IMG/VR virus record: IMGVR_UViG_3300021375_000006
DNA from: a virus
Taxonomy: Duplodnaviria; Caudoviricetes
Reading direction: 5' to 3' (one strand)
Length of the DNA stretch: 64,000 bases
A model generated the notes under the pieces. That model was not told where the DNA came from, made no database searches, and saw nothing but the letters and a program-made list of their open reading frames with translations. Made by a program: the position numbers and the translations under genes. Positions 1 through 17,530 of the stretch are shown in pieces. How positions within the stretch are numbered: the first letter of the stretch is position 1; every line of letters begins with the position of its first letter.

Positions 1-503
1 GGATGTTCCAGCTTATTATTATTTATCCTTTCAGATTCATTTAATTTAATAAATGTATAATTAGCCATCATTTTATTAGTTAAAGGTCTCTTACTATCAA
101 TAATTGATAACGGAGCCATTAAACCAATATCATAGATGTCTTTGTTAGACAAGAAGCCTTTATTATAGTCACTGACTATCACTAGGTCATACCCCTCTAA
201 GTAGGTTAGGTCTTTATCAAATGTAGAAATCTGCTCTTCACCCTCATCGTATCTGATGAACATGTGGTTAGATTTCTTTTCTACGAATCTTGTTTTTGTA
301 ATCTGTTCTGATTGAGTCCATAACTCAATATTGGCATCGGGGGCAATAGCCAAGCAATTAGCCATTGTATTGCCTGCCATCCCTGGATTTTCTATAGTTT
401 CTACAGGAGTAATAACAGGTACTGGCGCTTCAGGGGACAGACGTCCCACATTACCGTATATAAATCTATCGGTACAGCTATCTCCTATAATTAATATTTT
501 CAT
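1..503 (-). CDS. HldE/RfaE-like heptose-7-phosphate kinase (PfkB family), runs off left edge
   Basis: Manual translation from ATG at 503 (ATGA overlap with cupin stop): MKILIIGDSCTDRFIYGNVGRLSPEAPVPVI...GMAGN...KTRF...SDYNKG...IIDSK; matches the HldE kinase motifs RxSPEAPVP, GxAGN and SDYxKG. Confidence 0.85.
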   Translation of the reverse strand, partial: MKILIIGDSCTDRFIYGNVGRLSPEAPVPVITPVETIENPGMAGNTMANCLAIAPDANIELWTQSEQITKTRFVEKKSNHMFIRYDEGEEQISTFDKDLTYLEGYDLVIVSDYNKGFLSNKDIYDIGLMAPLSIIDSKRPLTNKMMANYTFIKLNESERINNNKLEH

Positions 504-865
504 CCTTGGGAATCTCCTTTGCGAATTCTGTAGCTATCTTCATCGAAGTGTTGTGTTGATACTTCAAATATTTCTGAGCCATCTTCTAGTGCTACTAACT
601 GATGTGGTTGGCCTCTTTCAATGGTGATACATGCACCTTCTTTTACTATTGTAGAATCTTCTACTGCACCTTCGGTATCAATCCAGATATATTCAAATGA
701 ACCCTTACCAACATACCAAGACTCTTTCTTAATAATATGATAATGCATTGAGAATCTACTACCCTTCTTATGAAATCTTAGTAATTTTCCACAATACTCT
801 TCGTCGTTGTGAATCCAAATCTCTTCGCCCCATGCTTTAGGTACTATTTTAGGTTGTACTATCAT
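500..865 (-). CDS. Cupin-domain protein (sugar-phosphate isomerase-like)
   Basis: VPKAWGEEIWI, SMHYH..K.ESW, GQPHQL, EVST cupin motifs. Confidence 0.8.
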   Translation of the reverse strand: MIVQPKIVPKAWGEEIWIHNDEEYCGKLLRFHKKGSRFSMHYHIIKKESWYVGKGSFEYIWIDTEGAVEDSTIVKEGACITIERGQPHQLVALEDGSEIFEVSTQHFDEDSYRIRKGDSQG

Positions 866-1581
866 AATTCTTCTATTCTTTTTGCTTTGTCATCAATAAC
901 CAAGTCAAAGCTGGGTTTTGTTTCTAAACCTGACTCAGACCAACCCACCACTAAGTTATTGTACTTACATCCCCATTCATTGAGTTGTGCCGTTGTCAAA
1001 TTAGTTAAATCTCTTTTTGAATGACCACCTCTAGCTGTCCAATATGTAATATGCCAGCCAGCTTCATATAGTTTATTTATTTTGCTTATATTAGTCGCAT
1101 TAGGTTTAGCATTTTGATATACTCTTTTACCCTCGTAGAAACAAATGGTTTCATCTATATCAACGTATGCCTTCTTTTGATCAGTATTATATAATTTGCT
1201 TTCTAGTACCTCAGTGGTCGAGTAGTCGCCTATTCGATCAAAGAAAACTACTTCACCAGCATGTTCTGCGCCTACGATTTCTTTGCCCTTCCAATCAGAG
1301 CCCACTACCATTACATCTGGTTTGAATTTAGCCACTAGATCAATTAGACCCTGTTTAGTATCAAAGGTCTCTACTAGATCAATATATTGAATGGATTCTA
1401 GAGCGAACTTTCTATCCTCTAGTTTATTATGAGGTCTATCTGGGCCCTTTGCCCTAGCCACCTTTTCGTCTGAGTCAATGCCTACAATAACTTTATCGCC
1501 TAATTCACTGGCAAATTTAAAGAGCTCAAAGTGACCTCTATGTAGAACATCAAAACATCCATTAACCCAAACTCTTTTCAT
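862..1581 (-). CDS. Sugar-phosphate nucleotidyltransferase (HldE/RfaE domain II-like) fused to HAD-like phosphatase
   Basis: N-term NGCFDVLHRGH (HxGH), VVGSDW, YSTT; C-term YVDIDETIC (DxD), YWTARG, IDDKA. Confidence 0.85.
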   Translation of the reverse strand: MKRVWVNGCFDVLHRGHFELFKFASELGDKVIVGIDSDEKVARAKGPDRPHNKLEDRKFALESIQYIDLVETFDTKQGLIDLVAKFKPDVMVVGSDWKGKEIVGAEHAGEVVFFDRIGDYSTTEVLESKLYNTDQKKAYVDIDETICFYEGKRVYQNAKPNATNISKINKLYEAGWHITYWTARGGHSKRDLTNLTTAQLNEWGCKYNNLVVGWSESGLETKPSFDLVIDDKAKRIEEL

Positions 1582-1616
1582 ATCTCTGCATTTACAGGGT
1601 TTATATGGTTAAAAAC

Positions 1617-2540
1617 CTAATTGTTTCCTCTAGAACCTGAAGATCTGCTGCGTGAATTACTACTTGAAGAAGAACTAGAACGTCTAGTAGGTGGAGGTGT
1701 TGTAGATCTAACGTTATTAGTACTTCTATTGTTAACGTTATTTGGTACTCTAGGTTTCCAGTTATTGTTTCTTGTATTATTAGGATTTACTCTAATATTA
1801 TTGTTATTATCATTAGGTCTTCTATAGATTCTTACAGTCTCACCATTATCTCTAATGATTACATTATTATCCGGGTTAATTCTAGGATTATTGTATGATC
1901 TTACTGTACGAGTATTATTACTATTAGTTCTACGTCTATTAACATTAGACTCAATTGTAGAATTAGTTCTATTAGAGACTATGCTACTACCTCTTCTACC
2001 ATTTACATAAACGGTATTGGGTCTATTTCTATGTTGCCATGCATAGTTGTTCATTCTCCATCTCCAGTTCCAGTCATTGTAATATCCATTCCAGCCATAG
2101 TAACTATTCCAACCCCAGCCCCAGTGAGCATTGCCCATCCAGTTATTATATCCCCATCTATCATATCCAAATAGTGACCATCTATGTGGTGTGAAACCCC
2201 ATACCCAGTCATTCCACATTTGATCTCTATTCCAGTAGTAGCCATAATAAGGGCTGTTCCAACCATATCTAGTACCTAATAATCTATTATTCCAATCAAA
2301 TGATCTAGGTTGACTTAGAGCATATTGTGCAAAGTCATATCTAAATTGAAAATCTGTTCTTAATCTATTTCTAAATTGAAATTCATTTAGGGTATCAATA
2401 GCTACATCATCTGAAACCACTATATAATTTTCATCATCATATATTGGGTCATAATTAAGTGTTGATACGTGCCAGTTAACTCCACATGATGTTAATAAAA
2501 CTAGTGATAGAATTGTAAGTAATCTTTTAAGTGTTTTCAT
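1617..2540 (-). CDS. Bacteroidota-type lipoprotein with W/Y/G/N-rich core and R/S/N-rich tail
   Basis: Lipobox LLTSC at residue ~18; low-complexity composition. Confidence 0.7.
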   Translation of the reverse strand: MKTLKRLLTILSLVLLTSCGVNWHVSTLNYDPIYDDENYIVVSDDVAIDTLNEFQFRNRLRTDFQFRYDFAQYALSQPRSFDWNNRLLGTRYGWNSPYYGYYWNRDQMWNDWVWGFTPHRWSLFGYDRWGYNNWMGNAHWGWGWNSYYGWNGYYNDWNWRWRMNNYAWQHRNRPNTVYVNGRRGSSIVSNRTNSTIESNVNRRRTNSNNTRTVRSYNNPRINPDNNVIIRDNGETVRIYRRPNDNNNNIRVNPNNTRNNNWKPRVPNNVNNRSTNNVRSTTPPPTRRSSSSSSSNSRSRSSGSRGNN

Positions 2541-2554
2541 ATATTTGTTTTATG

Positions 2555-2878
2555 TTATTTTTCTTTGTATTCCTGAAATGCTTCACTATTTGGTAGATCT
2601 TTCTCTATTTGTAAAGACCATAGTGAGCTATTTGGGACTACGAACTTTCTTCCATGGCCATAAACATAAAACGTAGTTTTCCAAATAGTTTGTCTAACTA
2701 TTCTTGCTTTCTTTGTACCTTTAATATAGACTACGTCATCTATATCAAAATCAGTACCCATCAAAAACTTCATACCGCTAAAAAAGTTGGCTATTGCATC
2801 TTTAAATGCTAAACCAGCTAAAGCAGCGATTGTTAACCAACCCCATTCTCCAATATACTGTGATAATAACTCTTCCAC
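2555..2878 (-). CDS. Minimal MscS (mechanosensitive channel)-like membrane protein
   Basis: TM helix then AFKDAIANFFSG...FDIDDVVYI...TTF...VPNS, resembling MscS TM3 and beta domain. Confidence 0.6.
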   Translation of the reverse strand: MEELLSQYIGEWGWLTIAALAGLAFKDAIANFFSGMKFLMGTDFDIDDVVYIKGTKKARIVRQTIWKTTFYVYGHGRKFVVPNSSLWSLQIEKDLPNSEAFQEYKEK

Positions 2879-3372
2879 TATATTAATCCTTTGTTTGTTA
2901 GATTCTGCAGTAAACTGTATTGACTAATCATTACATGTTTTACCGCTTCATCTCTATTCATAAATACAGCTCGGTCTACTTCTTTTAACTGTAGTTGGCC
3001 CTTAGGAATTTCTAATCCTTTCAGACCGATTTCCGCTAGATCTTTTATCTCTACAATATAGTAGTGTACAACCTTGTTATATTTGTACTTTCTACTGGTA
3101 ACTGTAAACGTAAAAGCATCTTTATTGATTAAAGATTTAGGTACTTTAATACCAAACTCTTCTCTAGTCTCTCTGATTGCTGCATCTAAAATTGATTCTC
3201 CTTCATCAATTCCACCCTTTGAAATACCATACGATGCTAGCTTCTTTCTGCCAGTGCTATGTCCTAATAGAACTTTGCCATCATGTACAATGGCCAAACC
3301 TGCAGACCGTCTCTCTTCCAGAAACTTCTTAGCCTCGTTAATATAGTTATCAAAGTTTGCAATTCTTTTCAT
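2878..3372 (-). CDS. NUDIX hydrolase
   Basis: Nudix box GGIDEGESILDAAIRETREEFGI. Confidence 0.9.
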   Translation of the reverse strand: MKRIANFDNYINEAKKFLEERRSAGLAIVHDGKVLLGHSTGRKKLASYGISKGGIDEGESILDAAIRETREEFGIKVPKSLINKDAFTFTVTSRKYKYNKVVHYYIVEIKDLAEIGLKGLEIPKGQLQLKEVDRAVFMNRDEAVKHVMISQYSLLQNLTNKGLI

Positions 3373-3662
3373 TATTTACTTTCTTCGTCGATCCTTTTAA
3401 TTTCTTCTTGTAGTTCGTGTATTCTCCATTCAAAGTCGAATAACTCTTGTCTACTTATTCTGTTATTTTTAAAAGATCGTTGTGCTCTCTTGTATTCTTG
3501 CGTTAATCTTTTTAATTCTTTTTGAAGAGAAGATCTAGCCTGGCCCGCTTGACTTGCCGTGACATTAAATTCTTTCTTTCTTGGGTTTGTTGTTCTCTGC
3601 TTGGGTGTAACCACCATATCGAAGTCCGAGAACAATGTTAGGAATTTATCAACGTTGTCCAT
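3372..3662 (-). CDS. Hypothetical coiled-coil protein
   Basis: ORF in operon context, preceded by GATATATA motif. Confidence 0.6.
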   Translation of the reverse strand: MDNVDKFLTLFSDFDMVVTPKQRTTNPRKKEFNVTASQAGQARSSLQKELKRLTQEYKRAQRSFKNNRISRQELFDFEWRIHELQEEIKRIDEESK

Positions 3663-3711
3663 TTCTTGAGCGTTTTATTTGAGTAGGTTGCCCCCTACAT
3701 AGTATATATCG

Positions 3712-4311
3712 TTATTTGATAAGAAACTCCCAGAACGAACGCCCAGTAGTATCTTCATTAGGAAAGTCAAACGATAAAGTTCTCTCCTTACCATTTTCAG
3801 TCCAGGTAATAGACTTAACAAAACTAGCAGGTATTCTAGCAGGATCTGAATTAGTTGTCCATTTATCTGAGAAGAATAATTCAATTCTAACTTCAATATC
3901 ATCGTAGATACCTGAAAGGTTTCTCTCGAATCTCTCTAGTGCAGCCCAGGCACCTCTATTTAGTCCCTGGTGTTGTAATGCACAGTTTGCATAACTAAAT
4001 GTTTCTTTTAACCATTTTTCAGAACATGCGAAAGTATTTGCTGGAGCCATGTGCCCCTTATCATATACATTAGCACTATAATCTGAACTAGAAGAACCAT
4101 TTAAACCAGGATAGGCTTTAAATGAAATCCCATCTCTATCATAAGTAGGTGATTCTGGTTTACAGAAGATAGTGTATTCAACAATCATTGGTTGTTGGTA
4201 TTCCTCATTGTATATAGATGTGTATATGTCTGTTTTAATTTCTTTAGTTTGCGCAAAAGCCACAATGTTAAAGAAGATTAAACAAAATATGATTGATATT
4301 AATTTTTTCAT
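3712..4311 (-). CDS. Secreted DNA/RNA non-specific endonuclease (NucA/EndG-like)
   Basis: Signal peptide; YDKGHMAPA (DRGH-type) and N..LQ..GLNRGAW..LE motifs. Confidence 0.9.
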   Translation of the reverse strand: MKKLISIIFCLIFFNIVAFAQTKEIKTDIYTSIYNEEYQQPMIVEYTIFCKPESPTYDRDGISFKAYPGLNGSSSSDYSANVYDKGHMAPANTFACSEKWLKETFSYANCALQHQGLNRGAWAALERFERNLSGIYDDIEVRIELFFSDKWTTNSDPARIPASFVKSITWTENGKERTLSFDFPNEDTTGRSFWEFLIK

Positions 4312-4532
4312 TTTAATAAAGGTCTTAAATAATTATTAATTTTTGCTAAAACATAAGAAGATTCATTTCTAGTTGGATAACATGCATCCCATAAAGATTG
4401 TTTTGGAAAATCAGGATCGTCTTGTGTTTTAGCCCACTTTTTTGCAGCTTCAAAATCTACAACTGACCAGCCAAACTCTCTTGTAGGAGTGGCTACAAAA
4501 CCTCTCTTAATTTTTCTTATTAGTTTTTTCAT
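4308..4532 (-). CDS. Hypothetical protein
   Basis: ORF overlapping neighbours in operon. Confidence 0.55.
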   Translation of the reverse strand: MKKLIRKIKRGFVATPTREFGWSVVDFEAAKKWAKTQDDPDFPKQSLWDACYPTRNESSYVLAKINNYLRPLLK

Positions 4533-4737
4533 CTTTCTTAGTTTTTATTTTTGGTTCGCTAATTATTTTAACGTAACTATCTTTTGCTTTTTTAACACAC
4601 TTTGCACAAAATGGTGTATAATAACCCACTTCATCCGGTTTAGCCCAGTTGCCTGACTTACCGACTGTGTACATTTCTTTATCTGGAAAGTCGCCCAAAC
4701 AATTTGAGCATACTGTCATTCTTACAGCTCTAGGCAT
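4507..4737 (-). CDS. Small CxxC...CxxC zinc-binding protein
   Basis: CSNC and CAKC motifs. Confidence 0.55.
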   Translation of the reverse strand: MPRAVRMTVCSNCLGDFPDKEMYTVGKSGNWAKPDEVGYYTPFCAKCVKKAKDSYVKIISEPKIKTKKDEKTNKKN

Positions 4738-5638
4738 CTCTCTGTTCTTTTATCCATTGTAGAACATTAACACTAGGCCTCCACTCTAACATCTGTGTAA
4801 TTAATGATATATCTGCTCTCGATCTTTTCGGTTCTTCTCGCTCTTCGATATGTACAATCTCACCACCGAATTGCTCTGCTATTTCTAGAATTTCAGTCTC
4901 TTCACCATAGGCAACGTTCCAGATCGGCATTGACTCAAATCCACCATTAGGTCTGGTTAGTGCTGCAAAACAGGCTTCTACTACATCACCAACATAGACA
5001 AAGTCTCTGGTTTGTCTGCCATCACCTGTGACAGTGATAGGTTGATATGATTCAAACTGTTTCTTAAAGATAGGAATGGCACTAACATAGCCCACGTCGT
5101 CTGGTTGACCTTCTCCAAATACATTAAAGAATCTTAAGGCTGCACATTGAGTATCTATAGTATGATATTGTTCTAATAGAGATTCCATCTCTAGTTTATA
5201 CTCAGCATACGGAGACATTGGTGCTGGAGTAGCCTGTTCGTTGAATGGTATATCTTGGCTATCACCGTAGACTGCGGCCGTTGAGGCTGCAACGATAGAT
5301 TTGGCACCTCTTTCTGTTGCCCATCTAAATACTCTTTCTGAACCACCGAATATACCTCTAAAATACTTCTCCCAATCTTCTAGTGACTCTTGTACTGAAA
5401 CCGGTGAAGCTAGATGTAATACATAGTCTATATTTTTAATATCTGGCATTGGACCGGCTGCAATATCACATTCATAAACCTTTAATCCAGCTGGTAGATT
5501 ACCAGACGGTAGAGTTAAATTCTCTAGTTTACCTGTGTAAAAATTATCAAGTACTGTAACCTGCCATCCACGTTCTAGTGCTTGCCAAACCGCGTGATGT
5601 CCAATAAATCCGGCGCCGCCTGTTATTACTATATGCAT
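4730..5638 (-). CDS. NAD-dependent epimerase/dehydratase (extended SDR)
   Basis: TGGAGFIG, ASTAAVYG, YAEYK, LRFFNVFG, GDGRQTRDFVYV. Confidence 0.92.
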   Translation of the reverse strand: MHIVITGGAGFIGHHAVWQALERGWQVTVLDNFYTGKLENLTLPSGNLPAGLKVYECDIAAGPMPDIKNIDYVLHLASPVSVQESLEDWEKYFRGIFGGSERVFRWATERGAKSIVAASTAAVYGDSQDIPFNEQATPAPMSPYAEYKLEMESLLEQYHTIDTQCAALRFFNVFGEGQPDDVGYVSAIPIFKKQFESYQPITVTGDGRQTRDFVYVGDVVEACFAALTRPNGGFESMPIWNVAYGEETEILEIAEQFGGEIVHIEEREEPKRSRADISLITQMLEWRPSVNVLQWIKEQRDA

Positions 5639-5644
5639 TTTTTA

Positions 5645-5890
5645 TTATTTAGTTCTTCTATTATATAGCTCATCTAAGAGCATTTTGTAAAGTCTTTCAA
5701 CGGAAATAAAAGATTCGCTTAGTTCATTAGTTCTAAATACTGACATATCATATTTACGATTAAGTAACTGGCCCCATGTTTGACCATACTTATCATATTG
5801 ATCTCCCCATTTAAGAGACCAATTAAGATATTCTGCATTTAGCCGTGACCATGATAAATCTAGCTTTTCCATCTTCATACTTCTATCCAA
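5645..5890 (-). CDS. Hypothetical protein
   Basis: ORF filling gap in operon. Confidence 0.55.
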   Translation of the reverse strand: MDRSMKMEKLDLSWSRLNAEYLNWSLKWGDQYDKYGQTWGQLLNRKYDMSVFRTNELSESFISVERLYKMLLDELYNRRTK

Positions 5891-5893
5891 TAA

Positions 5894-6760
5894 TTATACA
5901 AGCCATTCTCTCAAAGTTTCAAAAACCTTTTCAGGAGTAATTGCTTTATGACATTCAAATTCTCTATCAGTATCAGCATGTTTTGGACACCAATACCAAT
6001 TGCTACCATCAAATTTTTCTGTATGCCAACATCCATGACAGACAGATTCATCTGTTATTCTTTTATAGTCCTCTATTGATAGATCAAATTCATTCCAATC
6101 TTTTGTAAAATTAGAAATCATTACTACAGGTTTACCTAAAGCATGTGCTACCCAAGCCAAACCAGACGAAGGTCCAATATAAAACTTAGAATGCCATATC
6201 CAATTAATAACCTCTTTTAAATCTACAAAAACCTTATGGGCCTCTTCAGGCAATCCATTCCAATGTGGAGGTTTACCAAATAGTTCATGGTTTGATAAAC
6301 AAACAGGTGTTGTACCTGTAGTTTTTATCATCTTACATAATTCATTCCAATTAGTAGCAAGAGTTTGACCTTCTCGACCATCTGTAGAATTCCAATATTT
6401 TAATTGGGATGTACTATGAACACCAAACGTAACATAAGGTTGTTCCATTGGCCTATCCTTTAATATACGATCTATTTTAGGTCTAATATATGCTGGGTTT
6501 TCAAAACCTAATTGCTCTGCATAACCAGCTTGAATAGCTTTATCAAATTTATACCATATTCTAATAATATCTTCCTCTTGCCAACCATCTAACGTATCAG
6601 TAAAAAGAATACTTGGATAACTCCACTTAAATAAATCTTTAAAAATAAGATTAGTCTTAACTGTAACTGGAGTATCATGCTGTTCAGACCATAGTTGAAC
6701 ATAGGGTAATGCAGCAACCAGATCTCCTAATGAATGGCTATTTAAGTCAATTAGTTTCAT
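5894..6760 (-). CDS. TibC/Aah-like (GT9-related) heptosyltransferase
   Basis: SLGD N-term; IGPSSGLAWVAHALGKPVVMISNF; four-Cys finger VCHGCW...WCP...FEC. Confidence 0.8.
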   Translation of the reverse strand: MKLIDLNSHSLGDLVAALPYVQLWSEQHDTPVTVKTNLIFKDLFKWSYPSILFTDTLDGWQEEDIIRIWYKFDKAIQAGYAEQLGFENPAYIRPKIDRILKDRPMEQPYVTFGVHSTSQLKYWNSTDGREGQTLATNWNELCKMIKTTGTTPVCLSNHELFGKPPHWNGLPEEAHKVFVDLKEVINWIWHSKFYIGPSSGLAWVAHALGKPVVMISNFTKDWNEFDLSIEDYKRITDESVCHGCWHTEKFDGSNWYWCPKHADTDREFECHKAITPEKVFETLREWLV

Positions 6761-7580
6761 GTAAATAGTTTAAGTAATCTTGTAAACCTTCTTCCAATTG
6801 AAATTCAGGTCTCCATTTTGGCATCCATTTACCTCTATCACTACATGTGAAATACTGATAGCCTTTAGGTATCTTTTCTTCTGGGTGATATTTATATGGT
6901 ATATCCATGATTTCCATCTTCTCTTCAAACTCTCTAGCCTGACCACTACCCACTTCAAACCAATTACCCCACAGATCATCGACAAAGGCTCTAGAGCCAT
7001 TCTTAAATGCAAAGATATTAGCTGATACTACATCTTTAATATAGACAAAATCTCTAAGTGGTTTGTTTCTAAATAGTTTTACTTCTTCTCCAGCTTGGTG
7101 TCTTTTAAACATCTGATATGCAACTGATGCCATTCTACCTTTATCCTCTTCACCTGGACCATATACATTAAAGTATCTTAATGCAATTCCACCGTTCGAG
7201 ATTACATAACCCTCGCCAGCATATTTTGACCAACCATATAGATTAGCTGGATATTCTTTATTTGTACCATAGTTTGCAGCAGAAGAAGAGTAGATTAGTT
7301 TTACCTGATTTTGTTTACATAGATCAGTCAGATATTTTGTCACCTCGTAATTAAGTAACATCATATAATTAACATCTTGCTCTAGTGTATCTGAACATGC
7401 ACCGACATGAAAACAAGCATCTAGTTTTAGTGCAAAGATTTCATTTAGGTTTAACTTCCAGTTATCTTTTAGATCTCTCTCTTCAAATGTAACTACTTCC
7501 CAACCCTGTTTTTCTAATTCTGCCTTTAGGCTTCTACCAATAAATCCTTCCGTACCTGTAACTAATGCTTTCATATCCAA
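6747..7580 (-). CDS. hldD: ADP-L-glycero-D-manno-heptose 6-epimerase
   Basis: TGTEGFIG, FHVGACSDT, YSSSAANYG, YGWSK, RYFNVYGPGE..KGRMASVA. Confidence 0.88.
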   Translation of the reverse strand: MDMKALVTGTEGFIGRSLKAELEKQGWEVVTFEERDLKDNWKLNLNEIFALKLDACFHVGACSDTLEQDVNYMMLLNYEVTKYLTDLCKQNQVKLIYSSSAANYGTNKEYPANLYGWSKYAGEGYVISNGGIALRYFNVYGPGEEDKGRMASVAYQMFKRHQAGEEVKLFRNKPLRDFVYIKDVVSANIFAFKNGSRAFVDDLWGNWFEVGSGQAREFEEKMEIMDIPYKYHPEEKIPKGYQYFTCSDRGKWMPKWRPEFQLEEGLQDYLNYLHETN

Positions 7581-9847
7581 TTATCTTGTTTTAATTTTTG
7601 CCAAACATATTCTGGTGTAATTGTTTTTGTACATTCAAAATGTCTAGGTGTATCTTTGTGTTCTGGACACCAGTTCCAGTCACCTCTATCAAATACACGA
7701 TAGGTCCAACAGCCTGAACATACATTTGTATTAATAATTCTAATAGCTGGTTCAAATTCAATAAAAGACCAAGTAAATCCACTAATTAAACAGACTTTTA
7801 CGTCTAATGCCCATGCTAACCAGCTTAAACCAGAACCAATACCAATAAAATAACCACTGGCTCTCATCTGTTGACCTACTTTAAAAAGAGAAGATTCAGA
7901 ACCATCTGATACTCTTTCTATATTCTGTAAATGAGTAGTTTCTTTTGAACAATAATGTACATCCCAGTTTTGTGTTTTAAATTCATTTATTAAATCTTGC
8001 CAACCAGTTGGATGTTGCCATTCTTTAGCACCAGCAGTTCCTCGAGGGCCAATACAAACTGATGAATTATCTTTATCTTCTATTAAAGTATTTTGATAAA
8101 ATATAGGTGCCATCTTAGGTTTACGTTCCATATAAAAGATTCCTAAACGATCAGCTGCAATCGCACCAATCGGAACTGTTCTCCAATCTCTCTTATGCTT
8201 ATGTTTTACTGAAGGTTGATTATCTTCTTGATAAACACCTAAAGTCTGCCAATTCTGTGGCCAATATTCATGTGGAGAAACTGGTATAATACCTATCTTC
8301 CTATAATAACTCCAATCAAATAAATCTTGATGGTATAACCTAACATAAATAGTATCGTAATCTCTTTGTTGTTTTAGTTCTTCTACTTGACCCATCCAAC
8401 TAATTGTATCTCCTAATGAACTAGACTCGAATTGAATACCTATTTCCCTTTCTTCTGGTTTTAATACCTGTACTATTTGATTAGTTTTTTTCTTAACAAT
8501 ACGGCATTCCCATCTTTCATACCAATCCATTGCGTAGCGAGACCATAAATTTTCAAATAGATCTACCTTTAGATACATTTTATCTTTTAGCCAAAATTGA
8601 GCCTCGTATGATTTATCTTCAGGTGCCCAATCACAATGTAGTTCTGGTCCTGATCTATGATAAAATCTACAAATAGGTTTATTACCAACTCTATCTATAG
8701 TATATCTAAATTGCCTAAAGAAAGAATACCAATTACCATCAGGCCATAGTCGCTCTGTTTGATTAATAAGTATATTTGTCCATTCGTTTAAATCATACTC
8801 TGTAGTTTTAACTTGAGTGGCATCATTAAAAACCAACATACTAAATCTTTGAAAATCATTACCTACTTTACTAGGAATTGAGCTTAAATTATCATTAGCC
8901 CAAGCTACGATTATATTATTATGTGGTTGGTTAAATTTAATATTTTTACTTGGATATAAAAAATTAATTTTATCCTTTTGTTGTTGTGTAATCTCAGTTT
9001 CAGTATAAACAGAGAACTCTTTTATATCATTTAACCATTCACATGCCTGGATAGCAGAAGTAATATGCCAAACATCTTCATATAAAAATAAAGTATTATG
9101 TGGTTTTGATGATTCGATAAGAGGTTTTGCATTAATATTAAATTCTGCATGTTCTTGTTCTGTCATACTACCAGAGTCAGAACCTGGCCTTCTAACGTAC
9201 GTATATAAATTTCTAGGTATATGTACATGTTTACCTCTTGCTGTATTGTAGAATAAAAAGAATGTATCTGTGGATGTTTTGCACTCTTTAACAATAGGTA
9301 ATTTACTAACATCTGGTTTACGCATTGCTCGACCATGGCCAAACATTTTTTGAGTATTTCTATTTGAATAGATTTCCCAAAATTCTGAATTATGTCTAAA
9401 ATTCCACTCTAGGGCAAGATCGTCTGCTGGTTGTACTAATGACCATTGTTCTAAATCTCCATCAGGTGTTGTTTGAAAATAATCTGAAAATATAGAATAG
9501 ACTTGTGGATACGCTTGAAAATGATTATCATATATTTCAAATAATTCTTTATCTAAAATATCATCCGTATCTAAATCAAAATAGTAATCATATTCTAAAT
9601 GTTGAAATGTATTTTGGTATAAATAAAGTTCTCTTCTATTTTCTAAATGATAATAAATAATTCTTTTATCATTTAATTCTTCAACTCTCTTTCTTAATCT
9701 ACGTCTAAACTCAGGATCTTTAGATCCATCATCAGCTACGATTAATAACCAATCATTATGTGTTTGTTTTAATACATTATCGAATGTCAAGTCGATATGT
9801 TCGTCTGGATTATTATGAAAACTGGCTACTGCTAAAAACCTACCCAT
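7571..9847 (-). CDS. GT2 glycosyltransferase fused to TibC/Aah-like heptosyltransferase
   Basis: N-term IVADDGS and DLDTDD (GT2 DxD); C-term SSSLGDTISW, IGIGSGLSWLAWAL, VCSGCW...WCP...FEC. Confidence 0.8.
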   Translation of the reverse strand: MGRFLAVASFHNNPDEHIDLTFDNVLKQTHNDWLLIVADDGSKDPEFRRRLRKRVEELNDKRIIYYHLENRRELYLYQNTFQHLEYDYYFDLDTDDILDKELFEIYDNHFQAYPQVYSIFSDYFQTTPDGDLEQWSLVQPADDLALEWNFRHNSEFWEIYSNRNTQKMFGHGRAMRKPDVSKLPIVKECKTSTDTFFLFYNTARGKHVHIPRNLYTYVRRPGSDSGSMTEQEHAEFNINAKPLIESSKPHNTLFLYEDVWHITSAIQACEWLNDIKEFSVYTETEITQQQKDKINFLYPSKNIKFNQPHNNIIVAWANDNLSSIPSKVGNDFQRFSMLVFNDATQVKTTEYDLNEWTNILINQTERLWPDGNWYSFFRQFRYTIDRVGNKPICRFYHRSGPELHCDWAPEDKSYEAQFWLKDKMYLKVDLFENLWSRYAMDWYERWECRIVKKKTNQIVQVLKPEEREIGIQFESSSLGDTISWMGQVEELKQQRDYDTIYVRLYHQDLFDWSYYRKIGIIPVSPHEYWPQNWQTLGVYQEDNQPSVKHKHKRDWRTVPIGAIAADRLGIFYMERKPKMAPIFYQNTLIEDKDNSSVCIGPRGTAGAKEWQHPTGWQDLINEFKTQNWDVHYCSKETTHLQNIERVSDGSESSLFKVGQQMRASGYFIGIGSGLSWLAWALDVKVCLISGFTWSFIEFEPAIRIINTNVCSGCWTYRVFDRGDWNWCPEHKDTPRHFECTKTITPEYVWQKLKQDNWI

Positions 9848-10862
9848 TTCTTACTTCCATTATTTTATTAAACACTTGATCTGGACCTGGTTGACACTTA
9901 AATTCAGAATACCCTTCTAAACAAGATGGATAATAAGGTAAGTTATTTATAGACTTCCAATGTTTAACTGAATATTTAGGATCTGTAGCACAAAATATTT
10001 TACAATCACTACCTACAAAATGAAATTTATAGTCTTGTGATGCATATCTATATGGTGCAGTCTTTCTTGGATCGATAGATGCGCCTATTTGAAATATATG
10101 AGAATCTGTACACCCTGCTAAGTGGATTGGACCAGCATCAAAAGAAACTAATCCAAATGCATTATTTAAAACATGGTACAATTCAGAAATTGGTCTAAAT
10201 ACAGATGCTTCTTCTTGTTTACCTGGTGTATCATCACCATAATTATAGTCAATACCATTTAGATCTACTAGCCCTTTTACAATTTCACCTTCTGAAGTCC
10301 CCTCTCTATGAGCTTTACCGATCAAGACTATCTTCATATCGGTATGTTCTTTAATTAGATCAACTAGTCTTTGCCAGTGTTCTAATGGCCAAGTTCTATT
10401 AGGCCAATTCTCAGTAGGGTGGATAACAATACAGTTATCGTCAATCTTTAATGAGTCTTCAGTTTGTTCTTCTGGAAAATAGTCATAGTGTAAATCTTCA
10501 GGGTAAAGTGAAATACCTAGGCCTAAAGCGTGGTGTTGTCTCGCTTCAAAATTACTTAATTTAATTTGTACTCTACTATCTCTCTCCTGGTCTTGCCACA
10601 TGTTTCTATTTCCTTTAATCCAATGATTATAGGTTTCAAAAATCTCAGTATAGCCTTCAGGATCTTCATCTGTATATTTTAGTAATTTATCAACATAGGG
10701 AGATCTTTCGTAAATATCTGTGCGTCTACACATTACATCTACTTTATGCCCATAAGACTCCGCTGCTTTACGTACAGTTGGAGTAGAGCATATTGTGTCG
10801 CCCAATGCAGGGCAACTAACTTTAATTAAAACTTTAGAACTATTTCCAGGTAGGTCTATCAC
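9840..10862 (-). CDS. GT9 family heptosyltransferase-like protein
   Basis: ALGDTICSTP, IHP...NRTWP..W, SFDAGPIHLA. Confidence 0.8.
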   Translation of the reverse strand: MIDLPGNSSKVLIKVSCPALGDTICSTPTVRKAAESYGHKVDVMCRRTDIYERSPYVDKLLKYTDEDPEGYTEIFETYNHWIKGNRNMWQDQERDSRVQIKLSNFEARQHHALGLGISLYPEDLHYDYFPEEQTEDSLKIDDNCIVIHPTENWPNRTWPLEHWQRLVDLIKEHTDMKIVLIGKAHREGTSEGEIVKGLVDLNGIDYNYGDDTPGKQEEASVFRPISELYHVLNNAFGLVSFDAGPIHLAGCTDSHIFQIGASIDPRKTAPYRYASQDYKFHFVGSDCKIFCATDPKYSVKHWKSINNLPYYPSCLEGYSEFKCQPGPDQVFNKIMEVRNG

Positions 10863-11257
10863 TTATATTCTTCATAAGACTTCTCTTCGACTAGAAGAGA
10901 GCCAGTTAAAAGATTGATCTTTTTCTTCACCTCCGCTCTCTCGTCGTTAGTAAAATAAACAGATCTTGCTAATTCAACAAAGTCATCTTCGAAATCTTTC
11001 TTAGACTCATGTACTCTAATGTGGTCTTCTATATTCCATAACGTTTGATTAATGTCCTGTAAGTCTTTATGTAACTTTTTCATCTCTGGACGATCTAGTT
11101 CACTTAGAGCCTCGTACATATTATGAACAATAGGTGCTAATACATCGTACTCTGTTTGTACGTTTTTTAATTTGGCTTCATCTTTAATTTGTTCTAATTT
11201 GATAGCCAAAATAGTGAGTTTGTCTAGAATCTCACCGTTTGATACTTCTATTTTCAT
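10859..11257 (-). CDS. DUF6165-like protein
   Basis: MKIEVSNGEILDKLTIL...LWNIED..R...ARSVYFTNDERA..KKKIN pattern, often seen next to glycosyltransferases. Confidence 0.7.
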   Translation of the reverse strand: MKIEVSNGEILDKLTILAIKLEQIKDEAKLKNVQTEYDVLAPIVHNMYEALSELDRPEMKKLHKDLQDINQTLWNIEDHIRVHESKKDFEDDFVELARSVYFTNDERAEVKKKINLLTGSLLVEEKSYEEYK

Positions 11258-12641: not shown

Positions 12642-14394
12642 CTCGTTTCTTTAAAAAATCAATCTTATCCTGTTCTGCTTTCTTACGCATAGCCTCGTCG
12701 AATAATTCATCTTCACTACGTTCATTCGATACATCTTCAGTAGGTGTAATTGGTTTAGGTGCAATTACGTCTTTTTCTACTTCAGGTGTTTCTGGTAAGT
12801 GTGGTGTCTCAATTTTTTGTACAGTTGGAGGATATGTACCAAAGTCATTTGGTAAATTCTTTACAACTGCTGCAACTGATGTTGGATTAGTTTCATTAGG
12901 AAATTCACTATTAGATATTTCTTCTGGGTCGATTACCTCAATCTCTTTTTCTGCTGCTGCGATTTCTTCATCTTCTGCCATAAATACATCTTCTTCAAGA
13001 CCATCAACCATATCATTAAGTACCTGATCTAGTGCATGATCTTCATCCCATTCTTCTTCTGGCTCATGACGATCAACCGCTACATCGTAAGGATCTTGAA
13101 TACCTATGGCATCATTCTCATCCATCTTCTTTTGAAAGTCCATAAAGCCAGATTCTTTATCATTAGTCAGACCACCGATAGTATGAATTTTATCATCTTC
13201 CTCTGACCACGGCCCAGGTTTATCCATTTCCTCTAAGAAATCTTGAATTTCTGAATCGTCGTCCTCATTAGACCATGGTAAATCTCTAAAATCATCTAAA
13301 TCATCTTCAACTACACCTTTTGCTAATTCATCTGCAACTTGCGCCCAACGTTTAGCATTTTCTTTATCTATGTTAATATCAGCTGGTGGTTTAGGTTTTG
13401 CATATTGATCTGCGGTACTCCCATCTGTCCAACCAGAGTCATCATAATTATCATCATAATATCTCTCTGCAGCTCTACTTAATGCCTCATTTGGTTCTGG
13501 AAAATCATCATCGTTAAAGTCCTCTTCATTAAATTCATCAGTTAATGTAGGCTCGTATGGAGTTTCTTCATCTTCTGGTCTTTTAGGATTAGCCTTATCA
13601 AATGCAAAGTTGGCTGCAATTACCATAGAGATAGCTAGTGGATCGAATACAAAGATAATTATTAGGAGAAGTATATTAATAATCTTATCCATTGGTGCGC
13701 CTGTAAGGCCTGATAAATATTGTAGTGGTCCTAACTCACCAACAGTATCTGCTTCATTTTGTATCTCTAAGATTTTTAATTTAAGAGTCTGTAGTGAATC
13801 TGCTGCTACTTCTCTTTTCGCTTGAACAGCATTCCTGTTACCCTCTTCCACTTCAATTCTACTCTGTGCCAAACGTAGTTCAGATGTGGATATTGTGGTT
13901 CTAACGCCTCCAACCACCGAGGTGTCTCGTACCTGGATTTGTTGAGACCTAGCATTGGAAAGAGTACTAATGTTATTAGAAATTCTTTCAAGTTCTTGAT
14001 CGTATCTAGTAACGTCTGCTTCATAGAATTGTGCTTTATTATCTAAGAATTCTATCTGGTTCTGTTGAACTACTAATTTCTGATAGGTTTCTTGATATGC
14101 AGCAGATAGGAAGCCATAGATACCCATTGATGTAATAAGTACTAAGACTGTTGCTGCTATTGTTAGATAGGTTCTTAACCATTTGTTAATACTATCCCAA
14201 TATTGATATAATAGAGATGCAATTACTAGTTTACCGAATTCTAATGAACCGGCCATGATAATTACTTCTAATTGTGCCCCTGCAAATAATTTTGATAAAC
14301 CACTTACCGAATAGAATGCTGCTGATGCCGAAATTGACAAGGCAGAGAATGCTATTATGAATGGAAAGAAGTTTCTCTTTAATGATTTAAACAT
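12631..14394 (-). CDS. Multi-pass membrane protein with coiled coil and long acidic C-terminal region
   Basis: Three N-terminal hydrophobic helices, coiled coil, one further TM (IFVFDPLAI), D/E-rich tail. Confidence 0.75.
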   Translation of the reverse strand: MFKSLKRNFFPFIIAFSALSISASAAFYSVSGLSKLFAGAQLEVIIMAGSLEFGKLVIASLLYQYWDSINKWLRTYLTIAATVLVLITSMGIYGFLSAAYQETYQKLVVQQNQIEFLDNKAQFYEADVTRYDQELERISNNISTLSNARSQQIQVRDTSVVGGVRTTISTSELRLAQSRIEVEEGNRNAVQAKREVAADSLQTLKLKILEIQNEADTVGELGPLQYLSGLTGAPMDKIINILLLIIIFVFDPLAISMVIAANFAFDKANPKRPEDEETPYEPTLTDEFNEEDFNDDDFPEPNEALSRAAERYYDDNYDDSGWTDGSTADQYAKPKPPADINIDKENAKRWAQVADELAKGVVEDDLDDFRDLPWSNEDDDSEIQDFLEEMDKPGPWSEEDDKIHTIGGLTNDKESGFMDFQKKMDENDAIGIQDPYDVAVDRHEPEEEWDEDHALDQVLNDMVDGLEEDVFMAEDEEIAAAEKEIEVIDPEEISNSEFPNETNPTSVAAVVKNLPNDFGTYPPTVQKIETPHLPETPEVEKDVIAPKPITPTEDVSNERSEDELFDEAMRKKAEQDKIDFLKKRDGK

Positions 14395-14410
14395 AACTTT
14401 AGTTTTTAGT

Positions 14411-14770
14411 TTACCACTTACCTAATGGACATACAGATCCAGGTGAAAGTGCTTTAGCTGCTAATCTACAACCACAACCCCTCGTTGGTGCGCCAGTAAC
14501 TACATGAATACCCTCTTTATGTGGATTACATGTACCACCATCTCTCATATCACATGAATGACAGATATTTAATCTTGTTTCTGACTCATGTTTTAATTCT
14601 GGCTCTAAATCTACAAAATGAGATTTAACTAAATTACCCCATCCAGTTAAAATCTGTTCAATTTGACTGGGTTTTTTCTTTTGTGCAGGTGTTAAAGGTG
14701 CAGGTTTATATACATCTTTTTTGACATTACCCACAAAACCATACTTATTTGTTTTTCTTTCTATTGCCAT
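14411..14770 (-). CDS. Cys-rich metal-binding protein
   Basis: RLNICHSC...C...GCGC...AK......CPLGKW. Confidence 0.65.
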   Translation of the reverse strand: MAIERKTNKYGFVGNVKKDVYKPAPLTPAQKKKPSQIEQILTGWGNLVKSHFVDLEPELKHESETRLNICHSCDMRDGGTCNPHKEGIHVVTGAPTRGCGCRLAAKALSPGSVCPLGKW

Positions 14771-14773
14771 AAT

Positions 14774-15532
14774 CTATATATTATGTTTATCTTTAAACAT
14801 CTTCCTACGTTTAATAAACTCCTTTGCATAGAACTCTAAGTCTGATTGAGTTAGAGTAAACTTTTGAGGTAAATTATCATCCTCATTAGCAATCCATATC
14901 TCTGCACCATCTGCTTTATTTCCTGTCATATCCCAATACGCAATAAAATATGCAGAGGCTTGAAGGTAGTAATCAACAACCCATTCTTCTCTCTTAGGTC
15001 TTCTACTATTCTTATAGTCAATAATTTTAATTTGACCATCTGTTACTTTTGAGATATTATCTACTGTACCTGCCCAGCCGCCGCCTTTAGTAGTCCATAA
15101 GAAAGTCTCTGCTTCTAGGACTTCTAAGATCTGATCAAAATAGTCTGATGAATTAGACCAGAATTTATAGAAGAATTTCCATGCCTCTTCTAAATAGAGT
15201 TGACCGTTTTCATCATCTTTAAACTCATTGACCTCATCATCATCTTTTGCAACCTCTTTTAGTTGCGTTAGACGCTCCATGGCTTCACCAGAGGTCTCAG
15301 TTTTGTATAACTCAATAAGTCTGTGCATTATTGTACCACGAGACATACTAAGACTAGAGATACGATTAGCCTCTTTTTCACCCACTCTCTTCTTCCACTT
15401 CTCGAGACCAGACATATCTTTTGTCTGCCCCAATATAGTAGTAACCGAAGGTAGTTTCGCGATTACGTTTCCACCCTCGGTAACCTCATAAAATCTGAGA
15501 CCGTTCTCTTGTACTCTTTTTATTTCTGCCAT
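14774..15532 (-). CDS. PD-(D/E)XK (Cas4-like) exonuclease of T4-like phages
   Basis: LPSVTTIL, RGT.MH, AGTVD, IIDYKNS, YYLQASAY. Confidence 0.85.
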   Translation of the reverse strand: MAEIKRVQENGLRFYEVTEGGNVIAKLPSVTTILGQTKDMSGLEKWKKRVGEKEANRISSLSMSRGTIMHRLIELYKTETSGEAMERLTQLKEVAKDDDEVNEFKDDENGQLYLEEAWKFFYKFWSNSSDYFDQILEVLEAETFLWTTKGGGWAGTVDNISKVTDGQIKIIDYKNSRRPKREEWVVDYYLQASAYFIAYWDMTGNKADGAEIWIANEDDNLPQKFTLTQSDLEFYAKEFIKRRKMFKDKHNI

Positions 15533-16293: not shown

Positions 16294-16508
16294 AATTCTG
16301 GGTTTATTCCGGCCCACTCTATAAGCAAACCTTTATCTGTTAATTCAATATATTTATCATACTTAATACTGACCTGAATTTGGTCTGCTACTACTGCAAC
16401 ACTAGTATATTCAACTGCGTTCTCAAAAACATCTTCAATTAACGGAGAGTTAATGTTTTTATTGAGTTGCTCTAGATAATCTTTACCTATCCAAATTAAT
16501 ATATGCAT
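16290..16508 (-). CDS. Hypothetical protein
   Basis: ORF translationally coupled to thioredoxin. Confidence 0.5.
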   Translation of the reverse strand: MHILIWIGKDYLEQLNKNINSPLIEDVFENAVEYTSVAVVADQIQVSIKYDKYIELTDKGLLIEWAGINPEL

Positions 16509-16529
16509 AATTTTAAATTTAGTTATTCA

Positions 16530-17360
16530 TTATACTGAATTTTGGTCCGTTGTTTCATTATCATACCAAAACCTATCCATCCAAGAATAAACATTATCTG
16601 AATCCTTGTCATTATGTTGTTCAATCGCATTATAGGTTGTTGTAAAAACATTAAGGTCTTTAAATTGATGGTTAATCCAAACGTCAATAGGTCCTTTAAT
16701 TGGAGTTTTTTTGCGTAGTTTACGAACACCTCGATCACTTAATAAATAGCCACTAAGCCACCATACGCCATTCTTTAATTTTTCTAAATTTACAGAATAT
16801 TTTTCTGCTGTATAACCTACAGTTGCTGGTAAAATAGAGAAGTAAACCATATCCCAATCTTCTGGTAATTCTTTAAAAACAGAATTAAATGTCTTTGAAA
16901 ATCCAACTTCAAATGTTATATCATCTTCAAGAAAAAGAGCTGCCTTGCCTTTAGATTCTATAAATTTATCCCACATTGCAATATGTCCAAGTGAAATAGC
17001 TATCTCTGATTTAGAACATGATAGAATTTGTTTTCTATAATGATTAATATTATCACTAAATGCCGGATCTGGTTCTATTGTATATTGCCAATTAAAATCA
17101 TAGTCTTTAAGTACTAGACTCTTATCCCAATCGTCTACATCATCTCCCCAAAAAGCCTTTTGCCAAGTTACAAAATCAGCCAGAGTTTGATCTCCATCTG
17201 TTTTAACTCGATCAAGCTGTTTTATTAAGGCCTCTTTTCGATCTTTCCTATGCTCTAAATTTAACACATAGACCTGATCTATATTTTTAGTATTTAATAG
17301 AGTGTTTTTACCAAATAGACCTGCTATTCTTTTTATCAGAGTTGTAGTCCCTCTACTCAT
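16530..17360 (-). CDS. Glycosyltransferase family 25
   Basis: YVLNLEHRKDR, IAISLGHIAMW, LFLEDD, GYLLS..G, PIDVWI. Confidence 0.85.
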   Translation of the reverse strand: MSRGTTTLIKRIAGLFGKNTLLNTKNIDQVYVLNLEHRKDRKEALIKQLDRVKTDGDQTLADFVTWQKAFWGDDVDDWDKSLVLKDYDFNWQYTIEPDPAFSDNINHYRKQILSCSKSEIAISLGHIAMWDKFIESKGKAALFLEDDITFEVGFSKTFNSVFKELPEDWDMVYFSILPATVGYTAEKYSVNLEKLKNGVWWLSGYLLSDRGVRKLRKKTPIKGPIDVWINHQFKDLNVFTTTYNAIEQHNDKDSDNVYSWMDRFWYDNETTDQNSV

Positions 17361-17374
17361 GTGGTTGATATTTG

Positions 17375-17446
17375 TAGCCCCTAGGAGAATCGAACTCCTC
17401 TTTCCAGGATGAAAACCTGGCGTCCTAACCGATAGACGAAGGGGCC
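17375..17446 (-). tRNA. tRNA-Glu(TTC), no encoded CCA
   Basis: GGCCCCT/AGGGGCT acceptor; CCAGG-TT TTC AT-CCTGG; GTTCGATTC T-loop. Confidence 0.95.
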
Positions 17447-17453
17447 ATAGTTG

Positions 17454-17526
17454 TTGGGCCGCAGGGGCTCGAACCCCGACTCTTCTGGACCAAAACCAGA
17501 CGTGTTGCCAGTTACACCACAGCCCA
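17454..17526 (-). tRNA. tRNA-Gln(TTG), no encoded CCA
   Basis: TGGGCTG/CGGCCCA acceptor; TCTGG-TT TTG GT-CCAGA; GTTCGAGC T-loop. Confidence 0.95.
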
Positions 17527-17530
17527 ATTA

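Follow-up and report, generated by a model that had tools for sequence, protein, structure and literature searches.

Why would a tailed phage carry genes for making an activated heptose beside enzymes that resemble bacterial protein heptosyltransferases, and what would receive the sugar? The question is raised by the first 11 kb or so of a 64,000-nucleotide stretch of Caudoviricetes DNA (IMG/VR record IMGVR_UViG_3300021375_000006), the whole of which we call the window. The window is unusual in holding a donor-sugar cassette and three finger-type transferases in one 11-kb block. A preliminary description had listed an HldE-like kinase, a nucleotidyltransferase-HAD phosphatase fusion, HldD, a second epimerase, and three enzymes like those of glycosyltransferase (GT) family 9, all co-oriented, and profile matches place every one of them on the minus strand. 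With E-values of 1e-29 to 1e-56, chance similarity between the sequences is excluded. We lean towards reading the block as a phage protein O-glycosylation system, in which nucleoside diphosphate (NDP)-heptose made by the phage would feed O-heptosylation of its own fibres; the donor, the acceptor, and the order of steps are what we infer. Pathway homologies and the overlapping gene run DUF6165, GT9, GT2-TibC, HldD, TibC support this reading on sequence grounds. The preliminary description had likewise proposed phage-made nucleotide-heptose with heptosylation of virion or exported proteins, or a remodelled host surface. The pathway homologies and catalytic residues support this proposal in part and the virion option gains comparative support, with ADP-heptose as product and the acceptor still predictions.

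The two TibC-like proteins, a short one and the C-terminal part of a GT2 fusion, were judged by the features given in the TibC structure paper (PMC4358343). They align with TibC residues 100-379 and 63-377, respectively, and are 29% identical to each other. In TibC, Asp110 is the catalytic base, Thr226 and Lys230 are ligands of the beta-phosphate, and Trp305 is the ligand of heptose O4 (PMC4358343). Equivalents of all four are conserved in both window proteins and are invariant, as D13, T117, K121, and W203, in a 23-sequence family alignment. A four-Cys finger had been noticed in two of the GT9-like enzymes, and the motif C-x2-C-W ... C-P ... F-E-C indeed occurs in both TibC-like proteins, aligned with TibC Cys339/342/358/370. 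These Cys are invariant in the family as C241, C244, C258, and C270 and are predicted to bind iron. The third GT9 has a conserved Cys4 finger as well, C-x3-C ... C ... F/Y-E-C-H-P. A profile of its family matches WaaF (1PSW) at 5.9e-9 and TibC at 2.6e-4, and hhalign joins it to the TibC-like family over the full length, including the Cys region (probability 97.6%, E 4.5e-12). Judged by these alignments, all three transferases are finger-bearing GT9 relatives, and none is a canonical bacterial autotransporter heptosyltransferase (BAHT).

The search against TibC/Aah and GT9 models that had been suggested earlier succeeded in part. TIGR04414 gives strong E-values, with bit scores of 175.4 for the short protein and 170.3 for the fusion that do not reach the equivalog cut-off of 200. 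The Pfam GT9 model PF01075 is passed only by the third enzyme (37.9 bits against a gathering threshold of 22), the TibC-like proteins lying below it at 17.3 and 16.1. A heterodimer prediction for the two TibC-like domains (fusion residues 430-758 with the short protein) scored 0.00, which speaks neither for nor against binding.

Several other features of TibC are altered. The N-terminal beta-barrel (TibC 1-97), deletion of which abolishes TibA heptosylation (PMC4358343), is absent in the short protein and at most partial in the fusion. The hydrophobic thumb tip Phe265-Val266, which builds the TibC dodecamer (PMC4358343), is Pro-His in the short protein, and the hairpin region is shortened in the fusion, so that a TibC-like dodecamer is unlikely from the sequences. 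TibC Arg286 contacts adenine N1 and confers ADP specificity, the R286A variant being inactive (PMC4358343); this position varies within the family; the short protein has Val there, and in the fusion it does not align. Because they do not keep the barrel, the thumb tip with its hydrophobic residues, or the Arg that reads adenine, the TibC-like proteins appear as a separate, mostly viral branch. Pro300 makes TibC D,D-selective, and Aah, with Ser at this place, tolerates L,D-heptose (PMC4358343). The phage proteins have Gly there or Ser, the residue of nearly the whole family, and this fits the HldD-like gene that is wedged between the two TibC-like genes with stops and starts overlapping.

The donor genes have as their best-matching families those of the ADP-heptose steps (rfaE domain I, rfaE domain II, and heptose_epim), all with scores below the equivalog cut-offs. 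The truncated kinase reaches 73 of the required 345 bits, domain II 107 of 181.5, and HldD 192 of 274.6. The kinase runs off the left edge of the window; its full-length form of 245 aa, taken from contigs encoding an identical nucleotidyltransferase-HAD protein, is on contig L001 (2154-2891) and has PF00294 and a GAGD motif. A PfkB-type kinase with an HldC/HldE-II-type nucleotidyltransferase supports the ADP-beta-heptose route, to which this set of homologs would belong, and not the GHMP/GlmU-type GDP-alpha route. The C-terminal domain of the nucleotidyltransferase fusion has the HAD motif D-I-D-E-T and later motifs and would be a GmhB analogue; its nearest families are capsule phosphatases (TIGR01689 0.0072; PDB 9iqw 3e-9), not GmhB.

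These matches also bear on a different donor. The best PDB matches of the nucleotidyltransferase domain are cytidylyltransferases (TagD 4e-18; 5x9q 1.4e-15 is a further match of the fusion), the ADP-reading Arg is not conserved, and every equivalog score is under its cut-off. The sugar might then be CDP-linked, a further modified heptose, or something else altogether, with the cupin and the two short-chain dehydrogenase/reductase (SDR) proteins working as NDP-sugar epimerase or reductase. The match of the cupin model to an epimerase domain (below) would suit this, and a phage set of HAD/kinase, cytidylyltransferase, and GT gave heptose on DNA in E. coli (bioRxiv 10.1101/2023.12.21.572611). The best families are nevertheless consistently those of ADP-heptose enzymes, hepto_Aah_TibC among them, and the heptose O4 and beta-phosphate ligands are conserved, and we consider a sugar other than ADP-L,D-heptose rather improbable.

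An interesting question is where the heptose 7-phosphate comes from. No GmhA isomerase had been seen in the window, and tblastn with E. coli GmhA confirms this, with no match at E<0.09 in the window or in the flanks read (~10 kb left, 20 kb right). The suggestion that the gene lies off the left edge finds no support as far as the sequence was read, which took in that ~10 kb and, in a close relative, ~32 kb leftward; GmhA was in neither. It was also not found in the complete genomes of the cyanophages P-SSM2 and S-SM2 or in five large TibC-bearing IMG/VR records. The host is probably a member of the Bacteroidota, since two phage open reading frames (ORFs) have type IX secretion system (T9SS) sorting domains (Por_Secre_tail, CHU_C). 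Host supply of the isomerase is plausible, since an HldE-kinase-like match (E<=1e-20; 19 above cut-off) occurs in 133 of the 151 Bacteroidia genomes sampled, a result that does not depend on genome G095 (132/150 without it). If the host supplies the isomerase, the cupin is not needed as a GmhA substitute. The same count led us to reject, for a Bacteroidia host, the idea that the host has no heptose pathway and the phage must bring it.

In this phage, in cyanophages, and in an IMG/VR phage of 195 kb alike, the cupin always lies beside the kinase. Nearly all of its family is viral, and many members carry automatic labels as lyxose- or mannose-phosphate-isomerase-like. The AlphaFold2 (AF2) model is that of a metal cupin (predicted local distance difference test, pLDDT, 89.6). 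Foldseek matches it over the full length to archaeal phosphomannose isomerases (PMI) of 104-112 aa; KdgF, oxalate decarboxylase, and the cupin domain of the C3-epimerase CapF match equally well, and Foldseek does not distinguish between the roles of isomerase and NDP-sugar epimerase. From the model, the cupin is a candidate sedoheptulose-7-phosphate isomerase or NDP-heptose epimerase. That it may stand in for GmhA is a chemically reasonable possibility. A more far-reaching proposal is that the five-gene viral cassette is a complete GmhA-independent NDP-heptose route, with the metal cupin as a non-orthologous sedoheptulose-7-phosphate isomerase, feeding barrel-less, thumbless iron-finger heptosyltransferases that prime a glycan coat built on heptose on virion fibres of the mucin-like and Gly-Ser-Ser 'collagen' kinds; we regard this as doubtful. 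In the 195-kb phage (L180), an HtrL/YibB-family protein (13351-15024) and a GlcNAc-transferase-family protein (16443-17690) lie near the cupin-kinase pair. In E. coli, htrL is presumably in the lipopolysaccharide (LPS)-core gene region.

For the acceptor we turned to gene neighbourhoods, surveying the 80 best viral TibC-anchored loci with 10 kb on each side. A protein counted as a repeat protein if it was 300 aa or longer and either had a 100-aa stretch with a Ser+Thr content of 45% or more or contained an unbroken run of 8 or more Gly-X-X triplets. Such proteins are present in 45 of the 80 loci (44 of the 63 that are at least 12 kb long). Among tube-anchored controls, 4 of the 64 loci that lack TibC-like genes have such proteins, as do 5 of the 16 that carry those genes (Fisher p 5e-11 for TibC-anchored loci versus TibC-free controls; p 0.014 within the control set). 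The transferase array is directly upstream of sheath and tube genes in at least 20 of the 80 loci. A near-identical relative of the phage, Ga0233438_10000419 (97.8% nucleotide identity to window positions 4-1728; 92-94% to the exact-match contig L002), encodes on the same strand, downstream of the kinase, a glucosaminidase, DUF5824, and a zeta-like kinase, and also a block of fibre-like proteins. These are mucin-like proteins of 1038 and 614 aa with (A/I/V/L)(A/E)-P-T-T-T-T repeats, a 1400-aa Gly-Ser-Ser 'collagen' (Ser 27%, Gly 26%, 156 consecutive Gly-X-X), and a 1447-aa Ser/Thr-rich protein, with further transferases. The first repeat protein is 12.7 kb past the left end of the window, and the mucin-like proteins and the Gly-Ser-Ser protein lie 13-22 kb downstream. 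Virion proteins as acceptors are thus supported by the enrichment of Ser/Thr repeat proteins beside such enzymes and by the fibre block of the near-identical relative.

TibC and Aah work in the cytoplasm on proteins exported later (PMC4358343), and this would also suit exported or host-surface targets during infection (envelope proteins, host LPS or capsule), for example in blocking superinfection. Signal peptides are present on the two proteins with the highest Ser density in the window, one of which is encoded inside the cluster. Together with the T9SS-tagged proteins (Table 1), these two, a 452-aa exported protein and a lipoprotein, are the candidates. The lipoprotein has the second-highest Ser/Thr density of the window (18/40) and is a possible exported acceptor of uncertain membership in the system; no homolog of it was found in the 80 TibC-anchored loci, which tells against this alternative. 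The exported protein is, speculatively, the best in-window candidate acceptor. Its signal peptide, C-terminal Phe, and weak Atlas leads to Phage_OMP/OmpG (0.88-0.89) weakly suggest an outer-membrane barrel, and its AF2 model has a pLDDT of 29.6 (shallow alignment, sequences at least 82% identical). The family of this protein has more than 1600 members and is highly conserved, the 120 best matches listed being 77-100% identical; the Ser/Gly tract varies in length and the C-terminal half is conserved.

Surface targets would further be suggested by the third enzyme, closest to the LPS heptosyltransferase WaaF, and by surface-glycan-type genes in the window (two GT25, a GT2, a sulfotransferase, and a carbamoyltransferase). 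The WaaF-like enzyme, however, travels with the TibC-like ones and has the Cys finger in common with them, no flippase, polymerase, or ligase for lipid-linked glycans was seen in the window, and the comparative signal lies in long Ser/Thr repeat proteins and tail gene neighbourhoods. We therefore hold exported or host-surface targets to be unlikely. DNA is a third possible acceptor. Sets of HAD/kinase, cytidylyltransferase, and GT-B enzymes put one or two heptoses on 5-hydroxymethylcytosine (5hmC; bioRxiv 10.1101/2023.12.21.572611), and the TibC paper likens the iron finger to a zinc finger (PMC4358343), so that heptose might form hypermodified bases against restriction. We consider this highly improbable: no thymidylate-synthase-like hydroxymethylase, cytosine methyltransferase, or TET/5mYOX was found among window ORFs of at least 150 aa (some 100 kb of this phage or a close relative were read, of about 254 kb), the known DNA heptosyltransferase resembles T4 beta-GT and not GT9/TibC, and the Ser/Thr repeat association speaks for protein acceptors.

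If the block is a protein O-glycosylation system acting on fibres, heptose 7-phosphate would be made from sedoheptulose-7-phosphate by the GmhA of the host or perhaps by the cupin of the phage. The PfkB kinase would phosphorylate it at C1, the small HAD domain would strip the 7-phosphate, and the HldD-like SDR would epimerise C6 to give the L,D form. The two TibC-like iron-finger enzymes, barrel-less and probably non-dodecameric, would draw on this phage-boosted heptose pool and, in the cytoplasm, attach heptose to the hydroxyl groups of Ser/Thr residues in phage proteins. The glycan might then be lengthened by the GT2 domain of the fusion, the third GT9 with its Cys4 finger, and further transferases encoded in the genome. 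The acceptors would most likely be the phage's own Ser/Thr-rich fibres, encoded 13-30 kb downstream on the same strand.

Several points weigh against this interpretation. Kinase, nucleotidyltransferase, HAD, and cupin genes were found within 10 kb in 0 of the 80 TibC-anchored loci, and in two phages with a completeness of 98% or more (295 and 317 kb) TibC-like genes occur without a kinase, so pathway and transferases are not coupled as a general rule. The scores for TIGR04414, TIGR02197, and TIGR02199 are under their curated cut-offs. With the barrel absent or partial and the thumb tip and Arg286 not kept, the donor nucleotide and the mode of acceptor binding may differ from those of TibC. The window and its immediate flanks hold no long Ser/Thr repeat protein, and the fibre block 13-30 kb downstream was read on the relative, not on this genome. 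Moreover, the Ser residues that TibC and Aah modify lie in beta-helices and not in tracts that are Thr-rich and mucin-like or made of Gly-Ser-Ser.

In transcription order the cluster begins with DUF6165, the GT9, the GT2 and TibC-like fusion, the HldD-like epimerase, the short TibC-like protein, and an 81-aa ORF. It continues with a GalE-like SDR, small ORFs, a non-specific endonuclease, a NUDIX hydrolase, an MscS-beta-domain protein, and a lipoprotein, and ends with the nucleotidyltransferase-HAD fusion, the cupin, and the kinase (Table 1). The first five genes overlap by 4-14 bases and the last three by 4 bases. DUF6165, whose family consists mostly of viral clusters, overlaps the GT9 start by 4 bases and is part of the transferase unit. 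The small ORFs, endonuclease, NUDIX, MscS-beta-domain, and lipoprotein genes look unrelated and break up the cluster; the NUDIX protein is possibly linked to nucleotide-sugar metabolism. Megablast of the 11.3-kb block against GenBank phages gave no match.

Table 1. Features of the window, with positions, strand, and the matches or other basis for each assignment.
Feature	Position	Strand	Basis
PfkB-type sugar kinase (HldE domain I/HldA-like), N-terminal 167 of 245 aa	3-503	-	TIGR02198 rfaE_dom_I 1.8e-20; phrog_8133 1.4e-45
Cupin, 121 aa, metal-type (H-x-H...E...H)	500-865	-	Cupin_2 5.4e-7; WbuC family 1.3e-10; weak Lyx_isomer, PMI
Nucleotidyltransferase-HAD fusion (HldE-domain-II/HldC-like residues 1-128; minimal HAD 129-239)	862-1581	-	TIGR02199 rfaE_dom_II 7.2e-31 (residues 4-127); PF01467 1e-15; phrog_7878, phrog_1238
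Lipoprotein, 307 aa, lipobox L-T-S-C, W/N-rich, Ser-run tail	1617-2540	-	Sequence
NUDIX hydrolase	2878-3372	-	PF00293 5.7e-12; weak PDB matches to Ap4A hydrolases, NudE
GalE-like extended SDR (NDP-sugar epimerase/dehydratase)	4730-5638	-	PF01370 1.3e-46; TIGR01179 1.4e-40 (under cut-off)
Short TibC/Aah-like putative iron-finger glycosyltransferase, 288 aa	5894-6760	-	TIGR04414 1.6e-51; PDB TibC 4RAP 3.5e-29
HldD-like ADP-glyceromanno-heptose 6-epimerase	6747-7580	-	TIGR02197 1.4e-56; NF008360 1.6e-36
GT2 + TibC-like fusion, 758 aa; N-terminal GT2, middle part without assignment, C-terminal TibC-like (~435-753)	7571-9847	-	PF00535 9.1e-9; TIGR04414 6e-50 (residues 439-753); PDB TibC 2.6e-31
GT9 heptosyltransferase-like enzyme, 340 aa, own Cys4 finger	9840-10862	-	PF01075 1.7e-9; TIGR02193 2.6e-7
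DUF6165, 132-aa helical protein	10859-11257	-	PF19662 6.6e-15
Scattered glycan-modifying genes: two GT25, Nol-like carbamoyltransferase, GT2 between two DUF2589 genes, sulfotransferase	16530-17360 (-), 22157-23992 (-), 37398-38126 (-), 38743-39549 (+), 41113-41664 (-)		
Exported protein, 452 aa, ~60-aa Ser/Gly tract, C-terminal part ends in Phe	28861-30219	-	Highest Ser/Thr density of the window (23/40)
ORFs with cohesin, PA14/SdrD-like, and T9SS C-terminal sorting domains (Por_Secre_tail, CHU_C)	31372-32109 (-), 32111-33205 (-), 33222-34424 (-), 34607-36442 (+)		
GMP-reductase/IMPDH-family enzyme, sigma-70-type factor, guanylate kinase, Fpg/Nei DNA glycosylase	43350-44390, 44453-45049, 46853-47326, 49034-49870	- (all)	
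1183-aa protein, possible tape-measure or ejection protein	52229-55780	-	No family match

The short TibC-like family has 595 matches in a large protein set, and relatives of the transferases are on at least 242 IMG/VR viral contigs. Of 50,697 GenBank phage records searched by tblastn, only 4 have relatives, and no marine T4-like cyanophage is among these 4. A family-motif scan of species-representative genomes gave only 5 loci, mostly on short contigs of metagenome-assembled genomes; its motif patterns are specific to the viral branch, and it is no measure of canonical BAHTs. An exact-peptide search of IMG/VR, with its short contigs, found no close relatives of the short TibC-like protein. The 80 loci have a mean of 2.3 GT9/TibC-like ORFs each, many fused to GT4 or GT2, and a frequent arrangement is the long GT4/GT2-fused form followed directly by the short form. 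DUF6165 is present in 28-29 of these loci, mostly directly after the short TibC-like gene, and the third-type GT9 in 26. HldD is present in 3; HldD-like genes (44-59% identity) adjoin TibC-like genes in L013, L041, and L042.

The genome is that of a low-GC (~35%) phage with all heptose-cluster genes on the minus strand. The window also encodes a large terminase (TerL), a 950-aa tail sheath, and a T4-type baseplate protein, and genes for a T4-type portal, a gp23 capsid, and a gp44 clamp loader lie just past its right end. The nearest terminase match in GenBank is from an uncultured 462-kb phage (44%), followed by Tenacibaculum, Sphingomonas, and Flavobacterium jumbo phages (about 30-33%). TerL relatives of at least 82% identity are on 412 IMG/VR contigs, and window proteins are found on contigs of up to 254 kb. 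The lineage is abundant, uncultured, marine, and of about 250 kb.

Other genes of the window may be mentioned for the biology of this phage. The T9SS-domain ORFs imply phage-encoded T9SS cargo. The carbamoyltransferase, one of the scattered glycan-modifying genes, has a counterpart adjoining the heptose cassette in P-SSM2. The 1183-aa protein adjoins a baseplate-like gene; by eye, its first half or so is hydrophobic (Gly/Ala/Leu/Ile) and membrane-spanning-looking, followed by repeated units of ~100 aa. To the right of the window, directly before the gp23 major capsid gene, a protein with a long, extremely acidic Glu/Val/Ala repeat (L261:7551-9893; 780 or 786 aa, depending on the contig) may be a scaffold or decoration protein. 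The phage also has enzymes of nucleotide metabolism and DNA repair and a sigma factor (Table 1).

We found no description in the literature of phage TibC-like enzymes or of phage protein heptosylation. What is unusual here is the heptose cassette beside TibC-like phage enzymes; the cassette as a cyanophage annotation and TibC/Aah of E. coli were already known. If the proposed system is real, abundant marine phages would coat their fibres with a heptose glycan by means of enzymes of a kind hitherto known only from E. coli, where they modify adhesins and are associated with virulence, and a second, unrelated case of virion glycosylation would stand beside that of mycobacteriophages. A glycocalyx on the fibres could change how the phage adsorbs, how well it withstands proteases and grazers, and how sticky its particles are in sea water. 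The 'LPS-like' heptose cassette of cyanophages, long annotated but so far unexplained, would also gain a function, and its 'phosphoheptose isomerase' annotation would be corrected. The cupin question amounts to a testable enzyme displacement in a textbook pathway.

Phage glycosylation is known from two other settings. Phage transferases glycosylate mycobacteriophage virions (Freeman et al. 2023, cited in PMC12619734). These GTs are phage-encoded, some beside structural genes, as here, belong to other GT families, and act on the C-termini of capsid or tail-tube proteins. In phage DNA glycosylation the acceptor is 5hmC, and one set, again of other GT families, uses heptose (Pyle et al. 2024; bioRxiv 10.1101/2023.12.21.572611). 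Neither system involves TibC-like enzymes or Ser/Thr-repeat fibres. The bacterial ADP-L-glycero-beta-D-manno-heptose pathway (GmhA, HldE or HldA/HldC, GmhB, HldD; WaaC/WaaF) shares homologs of the kinase, nucleotidyltransferase, HAD, and epimerase with the phage set, which differs in lacking GmhA and having a cupin instead, in its shorter proteins and sub-cut-off scores, and in the lack of a lipid A-core context.

The donor cassette has its closest counterpart in the T4-GC 304-308 module of T4-like cyanophages (P-SSM2 PSSM2_309-313, S-SM2, S-CAM1/3, P-TIM68, S-SSM7), which encodes the same five proteins and is known as an 'LPS-like' annotation, although uncharacterised. BLASTP of P-SSM2 and S-SM2 proteins against window proteins finds all five orthologs (E 1e-20 to 1e-47). 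Identities are 50% for the nucleotidyltransferase, 39-50% for the small HAD, 49% for the cupin (P-SSM2 T4-GC 307), 29% for the SDR epimerase, and 36-42% for the kinase, labelled 'putative carbohydrate kinase' (T4-GC 305) in cyanophages. GmhA was found in neither setting. In cyanophages the nucleotidyltransferase and HAD are separate genes, whereas here they are fused; the epimerase here is ~5 kb from the other four module genes, between the transferases; and the cassette here adjoins TibC-like enzymes, unlike that of cyanophages. The 'phosphoheptose isomerase' of T4-GC 306 / phrog_1238 is a HAD phosphatase of 103-114 aa (DIDGT/DIDET) without similarity to E. coli GmhA, and by its sequence the label is a misnomer. 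P-SSM2 PSSM2_311 and S-SM2 SSM2_207 and SSM2_210 are HAD phosphatases mislabelled in this way.

For the transferases, the comparison is with TibC of enterotoxigenic E. coli (ETEC) and Aah of diffusely adherent E. coli (DAEC) (BAHT, TIGR04414, PDB 4RAP/4RB4). The GT-B/GT9-type core, the catalytic residues, and the place of the four-Cys finger, which holds a 1Fe-0S centre in TibC/Aah, are common to both. TibC and Aah act on beta-helical autotransporter passengers, and there is no autotransporter partner among the window ORFs. In the phage, unlike in E. coli, one TibC-like copy is fused to GT2, and the likely acceptors are Ser/Thr-rich fibres.

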